Shown: positions 52,812 through 64,000 of the stretch, piece by piece | Layout: every line of letters starts with the position of its first letter | Position numbering within the stretch: position 1 is the stretch's first letter | DNA from: Chitinophagales bacterium | GTDB lineage: Bacteria > Bacteroidota > Bacteroidia > Chitinophagales > UBA10324 | DNA length: 64,000 nucleotides | Reading direction: 5' to 3' | Assembly (NCBI GenBank): GCA_038326325.1 | Contig: JBBQJW010000017.1 | Span: 2,009 to 66,008 of the forward strand | The notes under the pieces: model-generated | Database searches by the model: none | Told to the model about the DNA's origin: nothing | What the model saw: the letters and a program-made list of their open reading frames with translations, nothing else | Program-made: the position numbers and the translations under genes

Positions 52812-53593
52812 TTTTTAATTTTCAATTCAAATTCATCCTTATCAAGCAACACTGGAAACTCTTTTCTATATGAATCAAGATTCGATTTTGAAAGCTCAAT
52901 AGTATGAATGATTTCGTTGTTGGTTTTTTGAAAAAGAATTTCGCCCTTCATGTCAATCACCGAACTGTCGCCGCTATGGAAGATTTTATTTCCATCCCCG
53001 CCCACTCTGTTTAATCCAATGGTGTAACACTGATTTTCTATTGCGCGCGCAATGAGCAAAGATTTCCACGCCTGAATTCTTCGCTCCGGCCAATTGGCGA
53101 CATACAAGAGCAAATCATAATTCTCTGCGTTGCGACTCCAGACGGGAAAGCGCAAATCGTAACATACGAGTGGACAAATTTTCCATCCCTTCCATTCCAC
53201 GATTAATTTTTTATCGCCCCGGCTGTAGTGATTATTCTCTTCACCCATTCTGAACAAATGGCGCTTGTCGTAAGTGAAAAAATTTCCATCGGGCTGCATC
53301 CATATCAGGCGGTTAAAATATTTTCCTGAATCTTTAATCATCACACTTCCACACAACACGACATTTTTTTTCGAGGAAATATTTTTCATCCATTCAATAG
53401 TTCGGCCACCCATTTCTTCAGCGAATAATTCAGGTTTCATGCTGAATCCGGTTGAGAACATTTCAGGAAGTAGAATCAGGTCGGTGTTTTCAACCGAAGA
53501 AATTTTTTCATCGAACATCGAAAGATTGGCGTCAATGTTTTCCCAATGAAGATTGGATTGAATAAGAGTTACGCGAAGATTGTTATCAGCCAT
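52808..53593 (-). CDS. carbon-nitrogen hydrolase family amidohydrolase (omega-amidase/YafV-like)
   Basis: E-K-C triad context: LLPEMF, YDKRHLF and CPLVCYDLRFP. Confidence 0.85.
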   Translation of the reverse strand: MADNNLRVTLIQSNLHWENIDANLSMFDEKISSVENTDLILLPEMFSTGFSMKPELFAEEMGGRTIEWMKNISSKKNVVLCGSVMIKDSGKYFNRLIWMQPDGNFFTYDKRHLFRMGEENNHYSRGDKKLIVEWKGWKICPLVCYDLRFPVWSRNAENYDLLLYVANWPERRIQAWKSLLIARAIENQCYTIGLNRVGGDGNKIFHSGDSSVIDMKGEILFQKTNNEIIHTIELSKSNLDSYRKEFPVLLDKDEFELKIKK

Positions 53594-53651
53594 TTATAAA
53601 AATGAATTCGCCAAAAGTAATGTTAGTGGCGCATCACTTTACATTTGCTCC

Positions 53652-54368
53652 ATGCAGGCGAAAACCGAAGGCATAGTTTTTCGAACAACTAAATATTCCG
53701 AGACGAGCGTGATCGCTTCGGTTTATACTGAACAATTCGGATTGCAGAGTTATATCATTAACGGAGTAAGGGGAAAAGCGAAATCGAATTCAAAATCTTC
53801 GTCGCTGCAATTGCTTTCCATTTTGAATATGGAGGTTTATAAAAAGGAAAATAAAAACCTGAACCGGATAAAAAGTTTTGAATCGGCGGTCGTGTTTAAG
53901 GAGATTCCGTTTGATGTGGTGAAAAGTTCACTCACTTTATTTATCGCGGAAGTTTTGAACCGAACCGTGGTGGAGGAAGAGTGTAACAGTCCGCTTTATC
54001 ATTTCGTGCGCAACTCGGTACTGGAATTGGACGGCGCGAAAAACGCTTCTGATTTTCATTTGCATTTTCTCGCCGCGTTAACTCAGCATCTTGGATTTTC
54101 TCCTCACGGAAAATATGCCGATGAAACGCCTGAGTTTAATTTGATGGATGGAAGTTTCGTGAATAATTCTTCCGTCTTTAATCCGCATTATTTATCAGGA
54201 GAAAACGCCCAACGATTTTCTGAATTATTTTTTAATCCCACTTCATTAAACCTGAATAAAAAAAACAGAAAAGAATTACTGCTGTCGTTGCTTGAATATT
54301 ACCGGCTGCATGTTTCCAATTTCAATATCATGAAATCACTTGAGGTGATTGAACAGGTGTTTGCGTGA
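53652..54368 (+). CDS. recO: DNA repair protein RecO
   Basis: Typical RecO N-terminal OB region, GIVFRTTKYSETSVIASVYTEQFGLQSY. The start is moved to 53652. Confidence 0.8.
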   Translation: MQAKTEGIVFRTTKYSETSVIASVYTEQFGLQSYIINGVRGKAKSNSKSSSLQLLSILNMEVYKKENKNLNRIKSFESAVVFKEIPFDVVKSSLTLFIAEVLNRTVVEEECNSPLYHFVRNSVLELDGAKNASDFHLHFLAALTQHLGFSPHGKYADETPEFNLMDGSFVNNSSVFNPHYLSGENAQRFSELFFNPTSLNLNKKNRKELLLSLLEYYRLHVSNFNIMKSLEVIEQVFA

Positions 54369-54380
54369 GCGGATGCTTGT

Positions 54381-54752
54381 GCGCATGGTTTTGAGGGGGA
54401 CTGCGTATATCAATTTACTACACTGCGTATGTGAATTTACTGCGTTGCGTATTTTGATTTACGGCACTGCGTATTTGTATTTACTTCGGTGTGTATGCTC
54501 ATTAACCCCATTGCGTATATCTATTAACGCTATTGTGTAAAGCTCTTACTGTAACAGCGTATTATCATTTACTGCATGGCGTATTGTCGTTAATTGCATG
54601 GCGTATTGTTATTTACTATTGTGCGTATGATTCTTGACCGTATTGCGCATGTGATTGAGTGATTGTTTCTATTCAAATTAGTGCATAAGGTGTATACTAA
54701 TGTTTTCAGGGGCATATTTTCCTGACTGAATGTGTATTGTACGAATTCGTAC
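54381..54752 (+). repeat. array of about 16 degenerate tandem repeats with a strict 22-bp period
   Basis: G(C/T)G(T/C)AT anchors fall every 22 bp from 54381 to 54645 (54381, 54403, 54425, and so on). They continue roughly in phase at 54690, 54712 and 54732. The consensus is GCGTATnnnnATTTACTnnnnT. Confidence 0.85.
54739..54752. promoter_or_regulatory. perfect 14-bp palindrome GTACGAATTCGTAC, candidate operator
   Basis: It lies between the end of the repeat array and the start of the HTH gene. Confidence 0.35.
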
Positions 54753-54798
54753 AAACTGCATTTTTTATCCCGACATTTTTGTTTTTCGAAATTCAGAA

Positions 54799-55080
54799 AT
54801 GAGCGCTGACCACAACTTCTTAGTATCAATGCAAAAGCGGCTGATTTTCCTTCGTGAAAAAAAATTTATAACCCCAAGTGAATTTGGAAATGTGGCGAAT
54901 GTGAATGAGAGAAGAAATGAAATATATGCGCAAGACCTTAGGGCAACTTCTATCGGAAGAATTGTGATCTCACTTCAAATTGATTTTAATGTTAGTGAAT
55001 TAATAACTAAGGAAATGCTGATGAAATATGCCGATGAACTTGATAAGGAAGAACACGAAAGAGAGAGTAGAGGGGAATAA
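54799..55080 (+). CDS. small XRE-like helix-turn-helix protein
   Basis: KRLIFLREKKFITPSEFGNVANVNERRNEIYAQDLRATSIGRIVISLQIDFNVSELI follows XRE HTH spacing. The start is set at 54799 because the 54730 ATG lies inside the repeat array. Confidence 0.5.
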   Translation: MSADHNFLVSMQKRLIFLREKKFITPSEFGNVANVNERRNEIYAQDLRATSIGRIVISLQIDFNVSELITKEMLMKYADELDKEEHERESRGE

Positions 55081-55218
55081 GGTTCGCCCGGAGTTTTACA
55101 AGCATGATAAATGACGGAGAGAAAGACTAACAAAGTAAAAACGGAGGGTTTCGGTTGTGTAACCCCAAAAGGACAAACGGATTAATTTTTTTTTCATAAA
55201 CCATAAAACAAAAACAAC

Positions 55219-56166
55219 ATGGCACTTTTAATCAGACCTGTTTACCGATGCACTCAACTTGAGCTGTATTCGACATTGAAAACCATTTGGGACAATTATG
55301 ATGACCATCAGGCGCAACTTGTTACTTACAAGAGTAAGTATGATGCTCCGCTGAGTGTTACACACAAGGGTGAAATTGCCGCTGCGAAAGCTTTGCCTGA
55401 CGAAGAAGCGCGAAATGCTGAATCGCAGAATCTTCGGATTGATGTAACAGCGCTTGGTCAAAAATGCACCCGCAACTGGCAACTATTGAAGGGATATATT
55501 GTGGAAGCTTATCCAGGGGCTAATCAGAAAGTACAGTTGGATGCAGCGGGGGCGGTTTACTATGTACCGGCATCGCACAGCAACTGGGAGTTTGTGGCGG
55601 GCATGAATTCTTCTGCAAACAATTTTATCGTTGCAAACGGTGCAGCATTATTAGCGGATGGTTTTATGCCCGCAGGATTTAAACTTCAATACAAAACTGA
55701 CAGCGATGCTTTTGATGTTAAGTATGATGAGTTTAAACATGCGCAACAATCGAGTGAGGGAACTGACGAGAAAATAAAAGCGAACAATAAAATTTATGAG
55801 GACAGCATGAAGATGTGCGCTGATGCAACAATGTTTTTTGTAACGGATGATTCGATAGTGAAGAAGTTTACTTTCACTACAGTGTTACAGATTGTTAGCC
55901 CGCCGGGGAGTGCAAGTTTGAAAATACAAGCCATTAACTTAGGCACTAATGAAATTATTGTTGGAGCGAAGGTGGTGATTCAGAAGGAAGGCAATGCTGC
56001 ATTGAACGGAATTACTGATGACAGTGGTGAAGTTGTTTTTCCGGGGATTGACCCGGGTGCTTATGATGTGACTATTGCCGCCGTTGGATATACTGCGATG
56101 AATTTCAGTAAGGATGTGAATACAGGTGTGAGTGCGCGAAAGGATGTGTTTATGACGGCGGTTTAG
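55219..56166 (+). CDS. hypothetical protein: helical N-terminal domain + C-terminal CarboxypepD_reg-like beta-sandwich (paralog of 26559-27467)
   Basis: The C-terminus is GAKVVIQKEGNAALNGITDDSGEVVFPGIDPGAYDVTIAAVGYTAMNF. It shares an LLAD.G...A....F.T segment with the other copy. Confidence 0.6.
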   Translation: MALLIRPVYRCTQLELYSTLKTIWDNYDDHQAQLVTYKSKYDAPLSVTHKGEIAAAKALPDEEARNAESQNLRIDVTALGQKCTRNWQLLKGYIVEAYPGANQKVQLDAAGAVYYVPASHSNWEFVAGMNSSANNFIVANGAALLADGFMPAGFKLQYKTDSDAFDVKYDEFKHAQQSSEGTDEKIKANNKIYEDSMKMCADATMFFVTDDSIVKKFTFTTVLQIVSPPGSASLKIQAINLGTNEIIVGAKVVIQKEGNAALNGITDDSGEVVFPGIDPGAYDVTIAAVGYTAMNFSKDVNTGVSARKDVFMTAV

Positions 56167-56204
56167 AAGAGTATCAAGTAGCAAGACGCAAGTATCAAGA
56201 TTTT

Positions 56205-56238
56205 AAAACCCCGAAGATTTTTTCTTCGGGGTTTTTTG
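56205..56238 (+). terminator. rho-independent terminator
   Basis: AAAACCCCGAAG-attttttt-CTTCGGGGTTTT followed by TTG. Confidence 0.8.
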
Positions 56239-56314
56239 TTTTATTAACTGTTACAGTTCGGTTTTAAACCAGAATTTTTAATTGCACTCGAGGCGACAGG
56301 CCGGACAGAGCTGA

Positions 56315-56401
56315 TTTTTAAAACCTTCGTTTATCCAACTGCCTTATGTTGGATAAACGAAATGATTTTTAGTTTTACTTCGTTTAATAACATGTTAGCT
56401 G
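56315..56401 (+). repeat. right-arm-only copy (two tandem degenerate right arms) of the hairpin site
   Basis: TTTTTAAAACCTTCGTTTATCC..CTTATG and TTTTTAGTTTTACTTCGTTTAATAACATGTTAGCTG both align to the right arm at 57077-57115. The copy includes a perfect 12-bp hairpin (56328-56359). Confidence 0.65.
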
Positions 56402-56483
56402 CAATGGTAACGCTCCGATTGAACGGCACTGCTACTTGAAACTGATTGCAAGAAATTAACTTTGACAAAACAACTTTGAAGAC

Positions 56484-56882
56484 ATGACAAATACGATAAC
56501 AAGACCAGCAGACAAACAAATCTTTGAAGGGATAATTGCTGACTATTATTTAGATGATGGTATTTTAGTTTCACTTTCAAAAAATCCCAAACGGACAGTT
56601 GAAAATATTACAAGCAATGTTGCTTTAGTAAAAAGTATTACCGACAACAAACCTGTTCCGCTTTTGATTTATCTTTCTGACTCTCCTATTCCAGACAAAG
56701 TGACACGAAAATTTGCGACTGAACAGTTACCAATAATTTATTCTGCAATGGCAATGGTTTCCAAACCTGGACTTTCAAAATTCATTATGAATATTTTGTT
56801 CAGTTTAAAGACACCACCGATACCAATGAAAAGTTTTACTGACGATAAAGCTGCAAAAGAATGGTTAGGACAATATTTATAA
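56484..56882 (+). CDS. SpoIIAA-like / STAS-domain-like hypothetical protein (cargo 1)
   Basis: 132 aa, ending ...MKSFTDDKAAKEWLGQYL, which is typical of STAS-like DUFs. Tentative. Confidence 0.45.
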   Translation: MTNTITRPADKQIFEGIIADYYLDDGILVSLSKNPKRTVENITSNVALVKSITDNKPVPLLIYLSDSPIPDKVTRKFATEQLPIIYSAMAMVSKPGLSKFIMNILFSLKTPPIPMKSFTDDKAAKEWLGQYL

Positions 56883-56963
56883 AAAGAATTAAGACAACAC
56901 AACTTCTAACAAACATTCGTGCTGACATCGGAGGACACATCTTCGGACGAACAGCACCACATG

Positions 56964-57115
56964 CAGCTAACATGAAGATAAATGCAAATTTTTAAAAGAA
57001 GGGCTTTGTACGGTAATCAAACAGTTGTGCATCTAACAAACATTGTAGGTTATCGAACAGTTGTGCTTCTAAACCCTTCTTTTAAAAACTTCATTTATCC
57101 CTTATGCGTTAGCTG
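56964..57115 (+). repeat. complete 152-bp imperfect palindrome with attC-like box layout
   Basis: The paired elements are CAGCTAAC / GTTAGCTG (8 bp), ATAAATG / CATTTAT (7 bp) and TTTTTAAAAGAAGGG / CCCTTCTTTTAAAAA (15 bp). The 70-nt centre carries the 17-nt direct repeat AACAGTTGTGCWTCTAA twice. Confidence 0.8.
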
Positions 57116-57187
57116 TAATGCTATGGCGACAGTGCTAACTTGAAACTTTCTGCAAGAAACGAACAGACAAAACCTTTAAACAGAACA

Positions 57188-57625
57188 ATGTTTGACGAAC
57201 TAAACAAATACGAACAACACGACCATTTCTTTTTAAAACCGCAAGACAGTTTGAGAGAAGTTTGTAACGCACCGACAAATAAAAGTGGTGTTTACATAGT
57301 TTACGCTTTGAAGAACGGAAAGGTAGAACTCATTTATATCGGCTGTTCAGGAAAAATACAAGCAGACGGTTCTATGTTCGTCAGAAAAGCGGGACTTGGC
57401 GGTATTAAAGACAGAATTGTAAACGGACACCAATTTGGAAAAATACCGAGACGAAAATCTTGGATAGCACAAATTGAAAAAGAAAATATTGAGGCGTTAG
57501 ACATTTATTGGTATTCAACACACAATCAAAAATATTCCGACTGTCCACGAATTTTGGAAAACAAATTATTACAGAAACATTTAGACATTTACGGACGACT
57601 ACCAAAGTGGAACAAGGAGTTATAA
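57188..57625 (+). CDS. GIY-YIG nuclease domain protein (cargo 2a)
   Basis: GVYIVYALKNGKVELIYIGCSG (GIY-N10-YIG), with a downstream Arg (IKDRIVNGH), Glu (RILENKL) and WN. The start is set at the ATG at 57188, because the track TTG start lies in the conserved leader. Confidence 0.65.
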   Translation: MFDELNKYEQHDHFFLKPQDSLREVCNAPTNKSGVYIVYALKNGKVELIYIGCSGKIQADGSMFVRKAGLGGIKDRIVNGHQFGKIPRRKSWIAQIEKENIEALDIYWYSTHNQKYSDCPRILENKLLQKHLDIYGRLPKWNKEL

Positions 57626-57630
57626 GAAAT

Positions 57631-58767
57631 ATGAAAGCAGCTTTTCACTACGCAGTTAAAGTAAAACTCATTCGCTACGAAACGAAAGAGGATATTAATT
57701 TCATTGACTTCAATAAAGTTTTTGAAAATGAAAATCCCATACTTGCAAGACAAGAGGCGTTCAAGGAATATGAGGAGTGGATAAAAGATTTATATACAGG
57801 AATTGGAACGACAGCAAAATATTCGACAGACAAGCAAGCAAGAATTGATTTACAAAAATTTACAACTCCATCTGGTAAACACAATGTTCAGATAGATGAA
57901 AATGAAATTGATTTTGGCAACTCTTTTGGTTACGGTATCGGAGTTTGTTTCATTATTGACAAGCCTTTTCATCAAAGTGGGGTAAGTGAAGACAGGTATG
58001 ATAAAGCAGGTGATGAACATTTAATTCACGGTATCGGGACAACAGAAAATTACAATAACCCTTTAGAAATAAGTGATGCACTCCTTAGCGAAATTCTTTA
58101 CTACGAACATTTCAAATACGATACTGGAAATTTTGAAAGACGAACCAACTTTTACGATTGGGACATTGACGATGTAGGAGAAATACATTTTTTAGAAACG
58201 CCTTTTGATTGGACAGGTTTAGATGTTAAACCAGAGAGCGAAACAAAAGAAGTAGTAGAACAAAATCCAAGACAACGCATTGAAGAAATGATTGCAAACG
58301 GAGAAGGCAATCAAGTTGAATTTAAACCAGCACTTCTTTACAACTTCAAAACTGACAAAGCAGGAATAAGTATAAAAGCAAAAATTGCAACAGCAATTTG
58401 TGCTTTTCTAAATGCTAACGGTGGGTTTTTATTTATCGGGTTAGACGATGACGGAAGACCACAAGGTTTAGAGAGGGATTTTAGTTTAGCAAACGATAAA
58501 AAGCCAAGAGATTATTTTCACGGAGAGTTTGACCAAATGATTGAGCATTTTCTTTCATTCGCAATTAAAGCAAATGTTATTGGAGAGTTTTACCGATTAG
58601 AAGGGAAAGATATTTTTATTGTTGCAGTTGAGCCAAGTAAAAACAGAGCAATATTTCTCAAAGGACAAAACGGAAAAGAATTTTGGGTTCGTGGCAACCA
58701 CGGCAACAGACAACTTACAGACATGGAAGAATTAGCGAACTATTGCATTGACAGATGGGGAAACTAA
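57631..58767 (+). CDS. protein with unknown N-terminal domain and C-terminal AlbA_2 (Schlafen-like) domain (cargo 2b)
   Basis: EGNQVEFKPALL...IATAICAFLNANGGFLFIGLDDDGRPQGL matches the AlbA_2 signature. The ATG lies 5 nt after the GIY-YIG stop. Confidence 0.65.
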   Translation: MKAAFHYAVKVKLIRYETKEDINFIDFNKVFENENPILARQEAFKEYEEWIKDLYTGIGTTAKYSTDKQARIDLQKFTTPSGKHNVQIDENEIDFGNSFGYGIGVCFIIDKPFHQSGVSEDRYDKAGDEHLIHGIGTTENYNNPLEISDALLSEILYYEHFKYDTGNFERRTNFYDWDIDDVGEIHFLETPFDWTGLDVKPESETKEVVEQNPRQRIEEMIANGEGNQVEFKPALLYNFKTDKAGISIKAKIATAICAFLNANGGFLFIGLDDDGRPQGLERDFSLANDKKPRDYFHGEFDQMIEHFLSFAIKANVIGEFYRLEGKDIFIVAVEPSKNRAIFLKGQNGKEFWVRGNHGNRQLTDMEELANYCIDRWGN

Positions 58768-58811
58768 CACGACACGAAATTGCAATGAATGTAAATCGCT
58801 TCGTGGACAGA

Positions 58812-58858
58812 ACAGCACTATAGCTAAGATGCAGATAAATGCAAATTTTAAAATGAAG
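58812..58858 (+). repeat. left-arm-only copy of the hairpin site
   Basis: ACAGCACTATAGCTAAGATGCAGATAAATGCAAATTTTAAAATGAAG aligns to 56951-57000. No right arm follows. Confidence 0.7.
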
Positions 58859-58865
58859 TTTGTGT

Positions 58866-58892
58866 GATGCCCCCGGCATCAAGATTTTTTTT
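58866..58892 (+). terminator. rho-independent terminator
   Basis: GATGCC-ccc-GGCATC followed 4 nt later by TTTTTTTT. Confidence 0.55.
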
Positions 58893-59144
58893 GGTTTTGT
58901 TTTTCTATAAACCTTTCATCCCTCGAGGATGATTTTTTATTTGGTATTTTTTTCTACCAATATTTTGTTCCGATGGAACAGGTGTAACAGATTTATTTTA
59001 AAGGACAGAAAGGACATGAAGGGCATGAAGGACGGGTGGGCAAGTGAGACTGTTATAGATTGCTTCAAAAATTGATTAAAATTTTTTCGCAATGACACCG
59101 TGAAAAAAAGATGAACAGCTGTAAGATGCTTAGAAGCCGGGTAG

Positions 59145-59204
59145 CTTATCTCCCCAAATAAACCATCAAAACAGAAACATCACTTGGGTTTACTCCGTTG
59201 ATGT
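59145..59204 (-). pseudogene. detached copy of the last 18 codons of mnmG
   Basis: The minus-strand translation INGVNPSDVSVLMVYLGR* compares with the genuine end ISGVNPSDVSVLMVYLGR* (60016-60072). I count about 8 nucleotide differences, all but one synonymous. Confidence 0.75.
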
Positions 59205-60015
59205 ATTTAACTTTTCCAAAGTTCCAAACTTTGGAAAATTTTTTTGTCGCAACAGGAAAAGTTTTCGTTCAAAAAAGTTCAAATAGTTTTATTCTTGATA
59301 GAAATTATTAATAGTGGACTTGCTTTTTCCAAATTCAACTTATCACATTTTTAATCATGCGAATGGAGATGAAAATATTTTCAGGAATGACGAGAACTAT
59401 CGGTTCTTTCTTGAAAAATTCAAATTTCATATTCATCCGGTTGCTTCAGTCATTGCTTATTGTCTTCTGCCAAATCATTTTCACTTCATGGTTAAAATTA
59501 GAACCGAAAATGAATTGTCGGCTACATTTAAAAATTTTCACGAGTTGAAAAGTGACGAAGAGCAATCGAAATTTATTTCAAAACAGTTTTCAAATCTTTT
59601 CAGCTCTTACACGCAATCGTTTAACAAAGTCAATAATCGAAGGGGTTCTTTATTTGTAAAAAATTTTAAGCGGGAGCTGATTCGAACCGATGAGCAGTTT
59701 CAAAATACATTTCTTTACATTCAACTGAATGCTGTGAAGCATGGATTTGTTTTGCATGAGATGGAGTGGAAATGGAGTTCATGGATGGCCTATTATTCTT
59801 TCTCAAAATCTGAAAGTCCTGAATCGGTGGTTACTTCACTTGATATTGAATATGCGATTTCAAAATTTGAAAGCATCTGGAACTTGATGTACTGTCACGA
59901 TTTGCGTCGCGAAAAAATACTTTCGCTGAAGTCGCTTGAGTCGGAATAATTTTTATCGTATAAATTAACTTTTCCAAAGTTTGGAACTTTGGAAAAGTTT
60001 TTTTACGGCGAAAGT
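59205..60015 (+). mobile_element. RAYT / IS200-like Y1 transposase unit flanked by inverted hairpins
   Basis: The hairpins CTTTTCCAAAGTTCCAAACTTTGGAAAA (59211-59238) and CTTTTCCAAAGTTTGGAACTTTGGAAAAG (59969-59997) are reverse complements of each other and bracket the transposase gene. Confidence 0.75.
59314..59949 (+). CDS. REP-associated tyrosine transposase-like protein (Y1 HUH, IS200/IS605 TnpA superfamily)
   Basis: YHIFNHANGDENIFRNDENYRFFL, the HUH motif LLPNHFHFMV and the Tyr motif YIQLNAVKHG. GTG start. Confidence 0.8.
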   Translation: MDLLFPNSTYHIFNHANGDENIFRNDENYRFFLEKFKFHIHPVASVIAYCLLPNHFHFMVKIRTENELSATFKNFHELKSDEEQSKFISKQFSNLFSSYTQSFNKVNNRRGSLFVKNFKRELIRTDEQFQNTFLYIQLNAVKHGFVLHEMEWKWSSWMAYYSFSKSESPESVVTSLDIEYAISKFESIWNLMYCHDLRREKILSLKSLESE

Positions 60016-61953
60016 TTAGCGTCCCAAATAAACCATCAACACCGATACATCACTTGGATTTACACCGCTGATGCGGCTTGCCTGCCCCAGTGTGCGGGGT
60101 TTGTGCTTCGTGAGTTTTTCGCGAGCTTCGAGCGAGAGCGAATTTATTTTCGCATATTCAAAATTTTCGGGCACCGGAACATATTCGAGGCGGTTCATCT
60201 TCTCCACTATTTCTTTTTCCTTCTCAATATAACCTTCGTACTTCATAAGTATTTCCGCCTGCTCAATGCTGTCTTCCATTTTGCCGGAAAGCAATTCTTT
60301 CACGGAAGCGATTTTTTCTCTGATATCGTTCATTTCAATTTGCGGGCGAGAGAGCAACTGAAGCAATTTTGTTTTTTGTTTTATCTCGCTTGAATCCTGT
60401 TCGGTGAGAATGGCATTTACATCATCAGGTGTTACACTTTCCTTTTTGAAGAAATCCATAATCACTTTCGTTTCTTCTATTTTTTTATTTACGAGATCCA
60501 ATCTTTCATCACTCGCCAGTCCAAGTTTGTGAGCGAGCAGGGTCAGGCGGATATCAGCGTTATCCTGTCGCAATAAAATACGGAACTCGGCGCGGCTGGT
60601 GAACATTCGATACGGTTCGTTGGTGCCCTTGGTAATTAAATCGTCAATCAACACGCCGATGTATGCCTCGTCGCGAGAGAGAATAAATTCCGGGTTGTCA
60701 TTTATTTTCTGGTGAGCATTGATGCCCGCCATTATTCCCTGACACGCGGCTTCTTCGTAACCCGTAGTGCCGTTGATTTGCCCCGCATGAAATAAATTTT
60801 CTACCACCCGCGTTTCCAGATTTGTTTTCAGTTGGTGCGGCGGAAAGAAATCGTATTCAATCGCGTAACCCGGACGAAACATGCGCACATTTTCGAAACC
60901 GGGAATCAGTTGCATCGCCTTGTACTGAACTTCTTCGGGCAACGAGGTGCTGAACCCATTGACATAAATTTCTATGGTGTCCCAACCTTCGGGTTCAACA
61001 AATAACTGGTGTCGCGTTTTATCGGCGAAGCGATTTATTTTATCTTCAATACTCGGACAGTAGCGCGGACCTAATCCCTGAATTCTCCCCTGAAACATGG
61101 GGCTTTGTTCGAATCCTGTTTTCAGAATATCATGAACCTCAGGGCTTGTGTAGGTGATGTAACAACTTTTCTGCCGCCTCGAGACCTCACCCCTAACCCC
61201 TCTCTCAAGGAGAGGGGAACTGTTGCTATTAATTTTCTCGTCTGTATTTTCGAATGCGGATGTTCCGGGTTTGTATGAAAATTTTCCCGGCGCCTCATCT
61301 CCTTTCTGTTCTTCCATCAAAGAATAATTCAAGCTTCTTCCATCAACGCGCGGAGGAGTTCCTGTTTTCATCCTTCCTGATTCCAGCCCGAGTGAAAGCA
61401 ATTGTTCGGTAATTCCGCTCGACGCTTTCTCCGCCATGCGACCACCGCCAAATTGTTTTTCGCCAATGTGAATGATGCCGTTGAGAAATGTTCCGTTCGT
61501 GAGTACAACGGCTTTCGATTTTATTTCCATTCCCATTCCGGTGCGCACTCCACAAACTCTTCCGTCTTTAATTAATAAGCCGCTCACCATGTCCTGCCAG
61601 AAATCCACATTGGGAGTTTGCTCGAGCATTTCTCTCCACTCCTTCGCGAATAATAATCTGTCGCTTTGCGCGCGCGGGCTCCACATCGCTGGACCCTTCG
61701 AACGATTCAGCATTCTGAATTGAATCATGGTGCGGTCGGTTACAATTCCTGAGTAACCACCGAGCGCATCTATCTCTCGAACGATTTGTCCCTTCGCTAC
61801 GCCACCCATTGCGGGATTGCAACTCATTTGCGCAATCGTTTGCATGTTCATGGTTACGAGCATGACTTTGCTGCCGAGGTTAGCTGCTGCTGCTGCTGCC
61901 TCGCAACCGGCATGACCGGCGCCTACTACTATTATGTCGTATTCAGGAAACAC
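60016..61953 (-). CDS. mnmG: tRNA uridine 5-carboxymethylaminomethyl modification enzyme MnmG (GidA)
   Basis: VVGAGHAGCEAA, MSCNPA.GG, GPRYCPSIEDK and GQINGTTGYEEAA. It contains an extra segment of about 24 aa (see findings). Confidence 0.95.
   Translation of the reverse strand: MFPEYDIIVVGAGHAGCEAAAAAANLGSKVMLVTMNMQTIAQMSCNPAMGGVAKGQIVREIDALGGYSGIVTDRTMIQFRMLNRSKGPAMWSPRAQSDRLLFAKEWREMLEQTPNVDFWQDMVSGLLIKDGRVCGVRTGMGMEIKSKAVVLTNGTFLNGIIHIGEKQFGGGRMAEKASSGITEQLLSLGLESGRMKTGTPPRVDGRSLNYSLMEEQKGDEAPGKFSYKPGTSAFENTDEKINSNSSPLLERGVRGEVSRRQKSCYITYTSPEVHDILKTGFEQSPMFQGRIQGLGPRYCPSIEDKINRFADKTRHQLFVEPEGWDTIEIYVNGFSTSLPEEVQYKAMQLIPGFENVRMFRPGYAIEYDFFPPHQLKTNLETRVVENLFHAGQINGTTGYEEAACQGIMAGINAHQKINDNPEFILSRDEAYIGVLIDDLITKGTNEPYRMFTSRAEFRILLRQDNADIRLTLLAHKLGLASDERLDLVNKKIEETKVIMDFFKKESVTPDDVNAILTEQDSSEIKQKTKLLQLLSRPQIEMNDIREKIASVKELLSGKMEDSIEQAEILMKYEGYIEKEKEIVEKMNRLEYVPVPENFEYAKINSLSLEAREKLTKHKPRTLGQASRISGVNPSDVSVLMVYLGR
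61197..61217. repeat. perfect 8-bp-stem hairpin CCCCTCTC-tcaag-GAGAGGGG inside the mnmG coding sequence
   Basis: Seen directly in the sequence. It encodes ...SPLLERGVRGEV... within the extra segment. Confidence 0.8.
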
Positions 61954-62080
61954 TTTTCGGTTTCGGGTTTCTTGTTATTTAGTTTCTGGTTGAAGGAGCG
62001 CAAAAATATTCTTATGCGAGCGCTTAAGGAAATGTTGTTTGGAATCATACTTTTTTAATTTTCCGCCCGAAATTTTTTGA

Positions 62081-62557
62081 ATGAACAAGGGGCTTTACAG
62101 TTTACCGAATAATGGATTTTATAAAATGCTTTTGAAAATGAGCATCAGTTCTACTTTATATCTGATGCTTGAGGGGTCAACTGAATTCAGTAGAATGGTG
62201 GGTGAATCCGGCTTGATTGATTACGAGCAACTGAAAGATTTTTACGAAGAAATAAAAGATAAAGAGGGCGAAGAGTTCGAAGTGGATGAAGATGAATTGC
62301 TGATGATTTACACCTGTCACTACATCGCTAATTGTTTCGCGCAAGAGAAAGAAGCATTTTTCAAATGGTTTATGCAGCACGATAACGGGCAAATAAATAA
62401 TTCTGAAAAACTTCGGCTCATCACCATGAATGGACATAAGGGAGCCGTGCGTGTTTTTGAAGAGCGCGATTTCTGGAACGAAAAAATGGAACAGCGAAAA
62501 ACTTTTTTGGAGAATTTATTCGGTGAATTGGAAGAGGGAGACGAGTTCGCTGTGTAG
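62081..62557 (+). CDS. hypothetical acidic protein
   Basis: A 158-aa ORF with no recognised motif. Confidence 0.45.
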   Translation: MNKGLYSLPNNGFYKMLLKMSISSTLYLMLEGSTEFSRMVGESGLIDYEQLKDFYEEIKDKEGEEFEVDEDELLMIYTCHYIANCFAQEKEAFFKWFMQHDNGQINNSEKLRLITMNGHKGAVRVFEERDFWNEKMEQRKTFLENLFGELEEGDEFAV

Positions 62558-62575
62558 TGTGTAACGGTTTGGATA

Positions 62576-63046
62576 TTATTTCTTTCCTTCCGGTTTGGGC
62601 GATAATATTTTCATTTGTTCCGAAATATTTTCTTCATCGAGTTCGGTTGTGCCTCGGTGACAAGTGATACATCTTACAGAATGAATAGTATCGGGCTGAG
62701 TTGATTTCATCCAGTTGAAATAGTTGGCGTTGATCTCGCTTGTCATTTTCATCATGTAACGGGCGATGTCTTTATGTTCGTTTGCATCACTTGCAAAGTC
62801 TAATTTGTGAATAGTGGTGTCTGCATTTCGAGCGTGACAGAATCCGCATTTTACTCCGAGCGCGGTTTTAAACTCATCCATTACCTGATGAAGTTTTTCC
62901 TCGCTAATATCTTTTGGCAGAACCTTCAAATTTTTAAATTCATCACCGGGTTTCTGATTAGTTTTTATCGAGGCGCTGATTGAAATGAAGGCCGCCAGAA
63001 GCAGAACAACGCCAATTGATTTTTTAAATGTAACAGTCATGACCAA
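62576..63046 (-). CDS. c-type cytochrome (two CxxCH haem sites), secreted
   Basis: Has a signal anchor, plus CGFCH and CITCH. Confidence 0.75.
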   Translation of the reverse strand: MVMTVTFKKSIGVVLLLAAFISISASIKTNQKPGDEFKNLKVLPKDISEEKLHQVMDEFKTALGVKCGFCHARNADTTIHKLDFASDANEHKDIARYMMKMTSEINANYFNWMKSTQPDTIHSVRCITCHRGTTELDEENISEQMKILSPKPEGKK

Positions 63047-63247
63047 TTAATTTATTTCAACAAAATAATGAAATAAATTCAAAAGTCATTGACGATAATT
63101 TCTCAGGATTTAAAAAGCAGTTGATATGCTTTGTATTCCGGATAATTCCATTCCAGCCAATTGCTGTTTTCCCATCGCCGTTTAAAATTCTCTTTTCGCT
63201 TTTTAATCACATCGGCGAAATTGATGTAACAGAAATTATAAAAAATA

Positions 63248-63886
63248 TTAATTCACAACCCAAAGCAACACTGGCTTATCGGAAGACTTCAACAATTTAT
63301 CTAACTCCTCCATAAAATTATTTGAAACAGCGGGGCATCCCCAACTCTCTGCTGACCCCGAAGGAAATATTTCTTCATCTGAAACGGCCTCCCAGGAGTG
63401 TAACACTATCGTCCGTTTCAATGCGTTTGAGTTTGTTGAATCCAGGCCATACAAAAGATATTTAACATTCATTCCCCACTGACTATATCCACGGTCGGAG
63501 ACTTTATATTTTCCGAGCGATGAACAATGACTGTCACACACATTGCTGAATTGCGGAGTGGTTTTGGTTCCGTCGTTACTCCATCCTTCGCTACCACAGC
63601 CGTGTGTTACCAATCCACGGGCTGTTACACTTTGTTCATTGAGATTCCAAACGAAGAACCGGTTCTTACCCGAGTGAATGCTCATGTCAATGAAAAAACA
63701 GAACTCAGTATTGAAATTATTTTCTTTACAAAACGAAAGCGCTTCGGCACTCAGCTTTTTTATTTTCAATGAATCAGTAGGAGACGAAATTGAATTTTCA
63801 ACTGTTCCGCTACACGAATTCAAAAAGAATAATTGAAGTGCAAACAGGTAAACCCATGATTTGTTGAGGATGGAATTTAAGTTCAT
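63248..63886 (-). CDS. L,D-transpeptidase catalytic domain-like (YkuD_2-type) lipoprotein
   Basis: Lipobox LNSC, HGCGS, and IVLHSWEAVSDEE...ESWGCPAVS. Confidence 0.65.
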   Translation of the reverse strand: MNLNSILNKSWVYLFALQLFFLNSCSGTVENSISSPTDSLKIKKLSAEALSFCKENNFNTEFCFFIDMSIHSGKNRFFVWNLNEQSVTARGLVTHGCGSEGWSNDGTKTTPQFSNVCDSHCSSLGKYKVSDRGYSQWGMNVKYLLYGLDSTNSNALKRTIVLHSWEAVSDEEIFPSGSAESWGCPAVSNNFMEELDKLLKSSDKPVLLWVVN

Positions 63887-64000
63887 GTTAATTGGAAAAA
63901 TTACGATTATAACGAAGCAAATGAATTGATATTATTTAATAAAAACTCAATGAAGGATTTGGGCGCTCGCTTTTTATTCATTGAAAGAATTAAGCTATGT

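Follow-up and report, generated by a model that had tools for sequence, protein, structure and literature searches.

In the 64,000-nt stretch of Chitinophagales DNA that we analysed (the window), which comes from a sediment metagenome, the end of a foreign mnmG gene lies beside the REP hairpin upstream of a REP-associated tyrosine transposase (RAYT) gene. The resident mnmG gene is found on the other side of the transposase unit with its own, different end. Our best explanation for this arrangement, to which we give a probability of about 45%, is that homeologous DNA was imported and joined at the foot of the upstream REP, and that the fragment is its ragged end.

The open reading frame at 59314–59949 (forward strand, GTG start, 211 amino acids) encodes a REP-associated Y1/HUH transposase. 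The NCBIfam model for REP-associated tyrosine transposases (NF047646) matches it with E=5e-17 and 62 bits, which falls short of the curated cut-off (80), and Pfam Y1_Tnp matches only with E=0.02. The sole match of a profile built from the RAYT family is E. coli TnpA-REP (PDB 4ER8; E=2.3e-7). The HUH motif N54-H55-F56-H57 is invariant in a 26-sequence alignment, as are the catalytic Y135 and N139. NHFH aligns with EHMH of 4ER8, and YIQLNAVKHG aligns with YIYINPVKHG of the same protein, a YIxxNP-type motif. The window holds one copy of the gene, and a protein of exactly this sequence turned up on just one contig.

Two hairpins flank this gene. Hairpin L (59209–59241) lies upstream of it, has the loop CCA and is followed by a T run, and the terminator-like hairpin R (59967–59999), with the loop TGG, lies between the gene and mnmG. 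Each is 33 nt long with a 15-bp stem and a 3-nt loop. The earlier note on this DNA called them exact reverse complements, which is correct for the 28-nt core that it quoted, whereas the full 33-nt arms are 97% reverse complements. As single-stranded DNA, their fold energies are −10.2 kcal/mol for L (z −4.6) and −15.0 kcal/mol for R (z −7.1). Only these two hairpins are visible in 64 kb, the exact 13-mer CTTTTCCAAAGTT has no further occurrence within the window, and the excess depth over hairpin bins is small in the source metagenome. A matching hairpin adjoins RAYT homologues of 42–62% identity in 76 of 83 other loci, and for this reason we regard the flanking hairpin as the cognate REP of the RAYT. 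The relation between hairpin and transposase therefore extends to other copies, and the identification of a RAYT-type transposase within inverted hairpins is confirmed by the HUH and tyrosine motifs, the match to 4ER8 and the cognate REPs. The REP–RAYT–REP unit is situated 16 nt downstream of the mnmG stop codon.

Most homologues carry an intact hairpin inside the gene at codons ~70–80, where it encodes TFPKFxTLEK. The corresponding remnant in the window (59527–59553, forward strand) encodes FKNFHELKS, is degenerate and no longer folds; the z-score for 59520–59560 is −0.6. According to PMC6006769, a REP within the tnpA-REP gene is what characterizes subclass 2.4, and members of this subclass are plentiful in Bacteroidetes and Cyanobacteria. 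This subclass (Quentin et al. 2018) corresponds to group 4 of Bertels et al. 2017 and consists of class 2 Y1 HUH enzymes. The window unit resembles known REP–RAYT systems in its motifs and inverted cognate hairpins, and its homologues do so in their intragenic REP. It differs from them in having only two visible REPs in 64 kb and no internal REP. The family fits subclass 2.4, and the window copy has lost this characteristic.

The duplicated gene end, which we call relic A (59146–59202, reverse strand), encodes the last 18 codons and the stop of mnmG (INGVNPSDVSVLMVYLGR*). A 5-nt joint, TATTT (59204–59208), separates it from the REP foot, and the junction is 5–8 nt away from that foot. The resident mnmG gene (60016–61953, reverse strand, 645 amino acids, with Pfam domains GIDA and SAM_GIDA_C) ends in the counterpart of the relic, copy B (60016–60072). 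As aligned, the direct repeat comprises 59143–59203 and 60013–60073, is 61 nt long with 84% identity and a spacing of 870 nt, and has a blastn E-value of 1.4e-13 within the window. No third copy of the mnmG end was found near recO.

When the 18 codons and stop of A and B are compared one by one, there are 9 differences in 57 nt. The earlier note had counted about 8; its statement that all but one are synonymous holds. Eight are silent and spread over seven codons (including Arg AGA versus CGC), and one replaces S in B with N in A. The Nei–Gojobori method gives an omega of 0.05 with dS ~1.0, and the probability that nine random substitutions would cause at most one amino-acid change is 2e-5 to 3e-4. 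The changes are thus concentrated at synonymous positions, which shows that relic A evolved within a working gene, under purifying selection. Relic A itself is the dead copy: its one amino-acid change falls at a position occupied by Ser in each of the 79 relatives compared. The codon usage of A and B under window preferences (log ratio −1.07) was not informative.

An allele of the donor type can be recognized in nature. Contigs from the lake-water metagenome runs X4, X5 and X6 match 59146–59202 at 55 of 57 positions. The X5 contig with this A-type end is 516 nt long and runs on upstream as an mnmG gene, which is only 82% identical to the window mnmG over 60023–60400, a stretch that includes most of B. 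Among 79 species-level relatives, the nearest has 9 differences from A, and most have 17–22. B-type 31-mers, on the other hand, are confined to the window's own sample. The differences between A and B (9/57) and between A and X5 (2/57) place B at roughly 81–88% identity to the X5 contig. B is native-type: its words occur only in its own sample, and this identity is in line with the 82% over the longer stretch. Relic A is foreign, coming from another lineage's functional mnmG and not from local duplication. A foreign, functional allele was what the earlier note had proposed as the source, and the match to working lake-water mnmG ends bears this out, with the donor-type allele found in the three lake runs and not among the 79 relatives.

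Another reading is local duplication, either in tandem or as a long target-site duplication that arose on insertion of the unit, followed by decay of the spare copy. In its favor, repeats of like length bracket two RAYT units, with 61 nt here and 65 nt at locus L085, and at L085 the differences are mostly nonsynonymous, as decay predicts. In the window, however, 8 of 9 changes are silent (P about 1e-4), and A is nearly identical to the natural allele of another lineage yet has nine differences from B. A local origin is hardly credible here, and we consider it refuted for the window by the excess of silent changes and by the match to the lake allele.

Metagenome assembly could in principle have joined the DNA of two organisms. 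The source is a sediment metagenome, and the contigs of an independent Logan assembly of the same run break at 58962–58976, inside a multi-copy stretch (58909–59110) that links the relic to the DNA on its left. From 58962 to 64000, this assembly is identical to the window, and a single 8289-nt Logan contig spans the whole arrangement from the relic across the RAYT gene with its two hairpins to mnmG, which argues against a chimera. The longest word common to A and B is 17 nt, which should be too short to bridge a k=31 graph, and the depths on either side are alike (18.3 and 21.5). A chimera is therefore extremely unlikely. Neither an empty site nor a circle joint was found in the Logan contigs of the source run, a result of little weight because such contigs drop rare variants.

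The unit and the relic are located in a variable interval between mnmG and recO (53580–54368, forward strand, Pfam RecO_N and RecO_C), the conserved left anchor, which is convergent with mnmG. In relative L002, the stops of recO and mnmG are separated by 11 nt, and one X4 contig has position 54369 joined directly to 59146. Because relatives have the two genes back to back, 54369–60015 is inserted DNA. An X5 contig has the recO end, then 23 nt, and then REP hairpin L at 40/42 identity. Neither L002 nor this X4 contig has the island at 54369–59142 (forward strand), which is made up of small gene cassettes on the same strand in a mosaic. Its sub-cassette 57164–58777 is found elsewhere too, with sharp edges. 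PADLOC and NCBIfam searches of the island proteins returned nothing, and Rfam gave nothing above the gathering score for 54000–60200. The 22-nt repeats at 54402–54638 were considered as transposon ends and rejected, as there is no inverted partner at the other end of the island.

These comparisons bear on two further proposals of the earlier note. As to an insertion hotspot at the mnmG terminus, the adjacency of recO and mnmG in L002 and the X4 contig supports an insertion site between the two genes, but none of 80 mnmG loci examined has a RAYT unit. The proposal that the relic dates the right edge of the island does not hold, because the island is pieced together from cassettes and is connected to the relic through the multi-copy stretch.

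Phage 21 and e14 integrate into the 3' end of icd, and islands likewise integrate at the 3' ends of tRNA genes. Such events classically leave direct repeats of a gene 3' end that have diverged by silent changes, and A and B could be read as the attL and attR sites of an island whose integrase directs it to the 3' end of mnmG and which brings a replacement end with it. The window shares with phage 21 and e14 the direct repeat of a gene 3' end, differences that are almost all silent, one copy that completes the gene and another that is a detached relic. In addition, the recO–mnmG interval is inserted DNA, and a homologue of one island cassette adjoins a tyrosine integrase (L167). In contrast to these phages, no integrase domain was found on any open reading frame scanned in 54369–60015, and the repeats bracket the 870-nt RAYT unit rather than the island. 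Moreover, the relic is foreign and the working end native, which is the reverse of the classic polarity, and the element is at mnmG in no other genome examined. An integrase-driven island is thus very unlikely, and the suggestion that an element carrying its own gene end integrated at mnmG is not upheld.

The explanation that we favor, an imported end joined at the REP foot, would involve the following steps. A relative with an mnmG end of the type seen in the lake-water organisms would be the donor, and its DNA would be imported horizontally. The broken end of this DNA would become attached to the chromosome where the upstream REP of the RAYT gene has its 5' foot, and its other end would recombine further left, probably in or beyond the variable recO–mnmG interval. 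The resident mnmG with end B would be left untouched across the unit. The joint itself might be formed in one of two ways. Hairpin-helped illegitimate end-joining, of the type seen in homology-facilitated illegitimate recombination, is one candidate. The other is strand transfer by the RAYT, in which the HUH tyrosine would cut at the REP foot and a foreign 3'-OH would resolve the covalent intermediate. To our knowledge, strand transfer by a RAYT to foreign DNA has never been shown.

In homology-facilitated illegitimate recombination, foreign DNA is anchored by homology on one side and attached by an illegitimate joint on the other. The window is similar in that the DNA of a diverged relative stops arbitrarily within a gene and is fused there to resident DNA of unrelated sequence. 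Both foreign origin and an illegitimate joint are seen, and the homologous anchor was not located. Since the recO 3' end is only 88–89% identical to the lake contigs, a homologous left crossover cannot be placed. Arrival by recombination from a relative, which the earlier note gave as its alternative, is closer to our explanation than its main proposal. A sliding-window comparison of mnmG with L002 and L003 revealed no recombination break, and no donor with the island or with the left flank of the relic was found. The A-type lake contigs diverge from the window exactly at the stop codon. Crossover from REP to REP was rejected as a model, since a further hairpin should then lie left of A, where none is present.

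The window differs from homology-facilitated illegitimate recombination in that its joint is at a defined REP foot and recurs at other loci. At L141, a cas1 fragment ends 2 nt from the foot of the upstream REP, and at L154 the end of a cas1 fragment (omega 0.11) overlaps the stem of this REP by 4 nt. In both cases, a foreign 5' fragment of cas1 lies between cas9 and the REP–RAYT unit. A 5' fragment of the RAYT gene itself ends roughly 1–5 nt from the upstream REP foot at L164 (judged by eye), and a truncated gene fragment ends 22 nt from it at L085. The recurrence of the joint at a REP foot suggests that a hairpin- or enzyme-directed step is involved. In a protein-level test, coding duplicates bracket the RAYT unit in 4 of 61 loci and in none of 150 random sites (p=0.0065), an enrichment that rests on few loci. 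This test replaced a nucleotide-level test of flanking repeats that was too weak and gave a modest excess (5/51 RAYT loci versus 10/225 random sites at E<1e-3).

A different possibility is that the RAYT unit itself is the incoming DNA. According to this model, the donor unit was located just downstream of mnmG, and aberrant single-strand excision of the IS608 type took 57 nt of the donor gene along. Circle closure would have created the joint A|TATTT. The circle would then have opened again at its usual right end and been integrated next to the recipient mnmG, guided by annealing of the passenger fragment to the homologous gene end. The use of single-stranded circles by Y1 transposases is established for IS608 and is discussed in PMC6006769. 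The model predicts the exact order observed (flank, A, TATTT, hairpin L, RAYT, hairpin R, 13 nt, B) as well as a foreign A and a native B. It also accounts for two regularities: the fragment always has its homologue in the gene at the other side of the unit (window, L154 and L141), and the repeat has its outer edge at a gene terminus (stop plus 3 nt here, ATG in L154). IS200/IS605 elements such as IS608 likewise have a Y1 HUH enzyme and subterminal hairpins and are cleaved a few nucleotides outside the hairpin foot. They differ from the window unit in that their hairpins share one orientation, whereas the window hairpins are inverted (CCA versus TGG). In addition, the window has a single copy of the gene, and IS608 does not carry copies of its target.

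Several observations speak against an incoming unit. The A-type lake organisms have no window-like RAYT, with a depth of 0 across 59270–59953 at a likeness of at least 80%, which we take to argue that the relic did not travel with the unit. Neither a RAYT gene within 6 kb nor a duplicated end was found at any of 80 mnmG loci of relatives, and mnmG is in none of the other RAYT loci. Furthermore, RAYTs are regarded as single-copy and domesticated (PMC5581495), no common cleavage motif was found at the joints or proposed cut sites, and 57 nt at 84% identity would be a weak guide for annealing. We consider this model possible but unlikely.

In Bacteroidota, most members of the RAYT family examined here sit in type II-C loci, between cas9 and cas1. 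Text searches of the literature yielded no paper that describes a RAYT at such a locus, and the RAYT papers searched do not mention a foreign gene relic at a REP foot or residence between cas9 and cas1. In-situ shuffling of cas9 has been described for type II-C loci of Flavobacteriales (Makarova et al. 2025, PMC12669027, Extended Data Fig. 9). As at L154 and L141, recombination in that system occurs at the cas9/cas1 boundary. A word search of the text of PMC12669027 for TnpA, HUH or RAYT found none, and the link to the REP foot is one that we infer.

A broader hypothesis extends our explanation of the relic to the whole family. REP–RAYT units might be docking points for incoming DNA. The Y1 enzyme would cut the upstream REP at its 5' foot, foreign single-stranded DNA would resolve the cut with its 3' end, and homeologous segments would be spliced in. 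The same reaction would then drive the swapping of cas9 modules in situ, and the mnmG relic would be one of its scars. This generalization is quite unlikely to be correct as stated.

RAYTs occur widely, and there is as yet no settled view of their function. The window offers a case in which a fragment of a foreign gene seems to have been spliced in beside a REP foot and in which the donor-type allele can be identified in nature. If the joint was made by the enzyme, RAYTs would be recombination devices with a function beyond moving REPs. The effector of type II-C CRISPR-Cas loci descends from cargo of IS200/IS605 elements. The presence of a RAYT between cas9 and cas1 ties a Y1 transposase to the CRISPR-Cas locus and may provide a testable cause for the shuffling of cas9 in situ.

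The 3' end of mnmG is present twice at this locus. The working gene extends on the minus strand from 61953 to its true end (segment B, 60016-60072), and a detached 57-nt copy of this end (segment A, 59146-59202) lies on the same strand. To the left of A are recO (53580-54368) and a 4.8-kb run of small same-strand genes (54369-59142), all on the plus strand. Between A and B is a unit composed of hairpin L (59209-59241), a 211-amino-acid open reading frame on the plus strand (59314-59949), and hairpin R (59967-59999). Spacers of 5 nt and 16 nt separate hairpin L from A and hairpin R from the end of mnmG, respectively.

The open reading frame is predicted to encode a REP-associated Y1/HUH tyrosine transposase (RAYT), with the flanking hairpin as its REP. 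It matches the NCBIfam REP-associated tyrosine transposase model at E = 5e-17, under the curated cut-off, and carries the invariant HUH histidines and the catalytic tyrosine. When a 26-member family profile was compared with the PDB, the sole match was E. coli TnpA-REP (4ER8; E = 2.3e-7). The hairpins are 33 nt each with 15-bp stems, fold far better than shuffled sequence, and are the only copies in the 64-kb window. They are 97% reverse complements of each other, inverted 3-nt loop included.

About 1,300 homologues of this RAYT were found, nearly all in Bacteroidota, and several are named RayT by their sources. The hairpin of the window, TTTTCCAAAGTT-loop-AACTTTGGAAAA, also occurs just upstream and/or downstream of RAYT in 76 of 83 homologue loci (42-62% identity to the window RAYT). 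Most homologue loci have a further copy of it within the gene, at codons ~70-80, where it encodes the conserved peptide TFPKFxTLEK. A REP inside the gene is a hallmark of Y1 subclass 2.4, which is abundant in Bacteroidetes (PMC6006769). The internal REP site of the window RAYT is decayed. In some loci, a second REP type (beginning ACCTGCCAGGTTT) substitutes for or accompanies the first. Tandem arrays of REP hairpins in alternating orientation, similar to REPIN doublets, precede RAYT in three comparison loci (L155:1543-3942, L109:1733-2386, and L099:5-629). The L155 array has 17 hairpins whose spacings alternate between ~128 and ~169 nt.

Most relatives of the window RAYT belong to type II-C-like CRISPR-Cas loci of Bacteroidota, in which they separate cas9 from cas1 (L086-L163 from metagenomes; L164, L165, L175, and L176 from named genomes). 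Among homologue loci, cas1 starts shortly after RAYT in 47 of the 61 with at least 700 nt downstream, and a cas9-like open reading frame lies upstream in 34 of the 50 with at least 1,500 nt upstream. The order cas9-RAYT-cas1-cas2 is present in all four named genomes checked (Belliella baltica, Echinicola marina, Algoriphagus sp. Y33, and a Niabella MAG), with spacers of just 13 and 8 nt in the last. A HIRAN-domain gene adjoins this arrangement in three of the four (L165:7854-8717, L175:880-1386, and L176:700-1197). In a neighbour-joining tree, the window RAYT clusters with four homologues (L082-L085), of which two have no cas1 downstream and two have flanks too short to tell. Text searches of the literature, together with term look-ups in surveys of RAYTs and Y1 enzymes, in a structure-free study of type II-C in Flavobacterium, in the 2025 classification of CRISPR-Cas systems, and in a 2018 preprint on CRISPR-linked genes, returned nothing that places a RAYT or HUH gene within type II-C loci. 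The 2025 classification does describe in-situ cas9 shuffling in Flavobacteriales (PMC12669027).

Segments A and B align over 61 nt with 84% identity. An earlier note described the RAYT, the inverted hairpins, and a mostly silently changed duplicate of the mnmG end, all of which are confirmed; its count of about 8 differences in 57 nt becomes nine across 18 codons and the stop, and all but one are indeed silent. The eight silent differences include AGA versus CGC (Arg), and the ninth replaces Ser with Asn. Omega is 0.05 at a dS of ~1, and the probability that nine random substitutions yield at most one amino acid change is 2e-5 to 3e-4. The sole amino acid change falls in A and affects a position occupied by Ser in 79 of 79 relatives compared, so A is the dead copy. 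Elsewhere in mnmG, a 120-nt segment (~61110-61235, nt 721-840) is only 59-68% identical among the window and two comparison loci (L002 and L003), versus 73-94% in the rest of the gene, and corresponds to an insertion in the protein that varies between lineages.

A is of foreign origin, and the allele it comes from is represented in lake water. A 31-mer index search with A returned three lake-water metagenome runs (X4, X5, and X6) in addition to the source run, whereas B returned the source run only. Each lake match differs from 59146-59202 at two positions, and the likeness of the lake contigs to the window ends exactly at the stop codon. By comparison, the nearest of 79 species-level relatives has nine differences from A, and most have 17-22. 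In a 516-nt X5 contig, the match extends upstream as an mnmG gene with 82% identity to that of the window (68 differences in 378 nt). Since A differs at 9 of 57 positions from B and at two from the X5 contig, B should be roughly 81-88% identical to that contig, which agrees with the 82% over the stretch including B. B fits the native gene and A is a patch from the lake-type lineage; the occurrence of this allele in nature backs the foreign allele that the earlier note had proposed. The duplicate is real, and local duplication followed by decay is refuted for the window, as eight of nine differences are silent and A matches the lake allele. A REP-like variant hairpin (TTTCCAAAAGTCGAAACTTTTGAA) starts 6 nt past the A-type mnmG stop in the X5 contig, which ends there. 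Members of this group may therefore commonly carry a REP immediately 3' of mnmG.

The recO-mnmG site is empty in relatives. In L002, a relative whose MnmG protein is 87% identical, the two stop codons are 11 nt apart. An X4 contig joins 54369 to 59146, and in an X5 contig the end of recO is followed by 23 nt and then by a hairpin matching 59209-59250 at 40 of 42 positions. These arrangements show that 54369-60015 is inserted DNA and that a REP in the recO-mnmG spacer is not confined to the window.

The island at 54369-59142 is a mosaic. A two-gene cassette (57164-58777) encodes a 145-amino-acid protein and an AlbA_2/Schlafen-domain protein. Copies with 81-84% nucleotide identity are found in unrelated contexts (L167-L174), and their homology has sharp edges, starting ~24 nt ahead of the first gene and stopping 10 nt past the second. 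One of these copies (L167) comes after a tyrosine integrase. A classical integrase-driven island is nevertheless very improbable here, as three of its defining features fail. At its left edge, soon past the end of recO, nine head-to-tail copies of a 22-nt unit (beginning TGCGTATnnnnATTTAC) occupy one strand at 54402-54638. They resemble iterons or sites for protein binding, and the rest of the island does not repeat the pattern (11 matches versus 2.2 expected by chance). A 58-nt element with 81% identity between copies trails two different cassettes (56945-57001 and 58805-58858) and could serve at their boundaries as a site of recombination or regulation. Part of its first copy belongs to a 30-nt inverted repeat (56977-57006 paired with 57071-57099), of which it makes up one arm. 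A short distance left of the relic, 58909-59110 is present in many copies in the source metagenome, with a depth of 85-121 versus ~20 and with indel variants; it includes a 9-nt tandem repeat (59001-59033) and has no Rfam match. Within it, 59042-59102 has matches in the lake-water runs with 5-7 mismatches over 40-49 nt. Contigs of the independent Logan assembly of the source run break in this stretch, at 58962-58976, and thus the island-relic link depends on the original assembly. One independent 8289-nt contig, which matches the window exactly, takes in the segment that starts at 58962 and includes the relic, the RAYT unit, and mnmG.

How the relic arose is partly resolved. Our preferred explanation, to which we assign a probability of about 0.45, is import of homeologous DNA whose donor was a relative sharing the gene order; one broken end of this DNA would have become joined to the REP foot, and the other end would have recombined further left. 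The fragment would be mnmG because gene order is shared between donor and recipient. The defined position of the joint suggests hairpin-assisted illegitimate joining or RAYT strand transfer, a chemistry that we infer. The main rival, in which the unit moved as a single-strand circle carrying 57 nt of donor mnmG, reproduces the observed order exactly but is unlikely, given that A-type lake organisms are without a window-like RAYT and that RAYT is found at mnmG in no other locus examined.

Gene fragments also occur at the REP feet of other RAYT loci. A same-strand comparison, at the protein level, of the 450 nt upstream of the unit with the 1,500 nt downstream of it found bracketing coding duplicates in 3 of 60 loci, or 4 of 61 once the window is counted, versus 0 of 150 random sites (Fisher p = 0.0065). 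In the anatomy that these loci share, a truncated gene fragment is found a short way outside the 5' foot of the REP that precedes RAYT, and its full-length homologue is just past the unit. The window fragment (18 codons and the stop of mnmG) ends 5-8 nt from the upstream REP stem. A 72-codon cas1 5' fragment in L154, located between cas9 and the REP with full cas1 beyond the unit, overlaps the stem by 4 nt, and a 34-codon cas1 fragment in L141 lies 2 nt from it. In Belliella baltica (CP003281; L164:5844-5965), the interval between cas9 and the upstream REP contains a diverged duplicate of about the first 30 codons of RAYT (~85% identity by eye), which runs into the hairpin foot, ~1-5 nt from the stem by eye; a different REP type (beginning ACCTGGCAGGTTT) lies between RAYT and cas1. 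A 65-nt repeat of a small gene in L085 is 22 nt from the stem. Substitution patterns were tested for the window and for L154 (omega 0.11, dS 1.3), and in both the fragment and the full gene had diverged while the fragment was functional coding sequence. Changes in the L085 fragment are mostly nonsynonymous, and the fragments are not xenologous in every case. The window locus combines a REP-RAYT unit with a xenologous gene-end relic; both kinds are known, and their combination is a variant.
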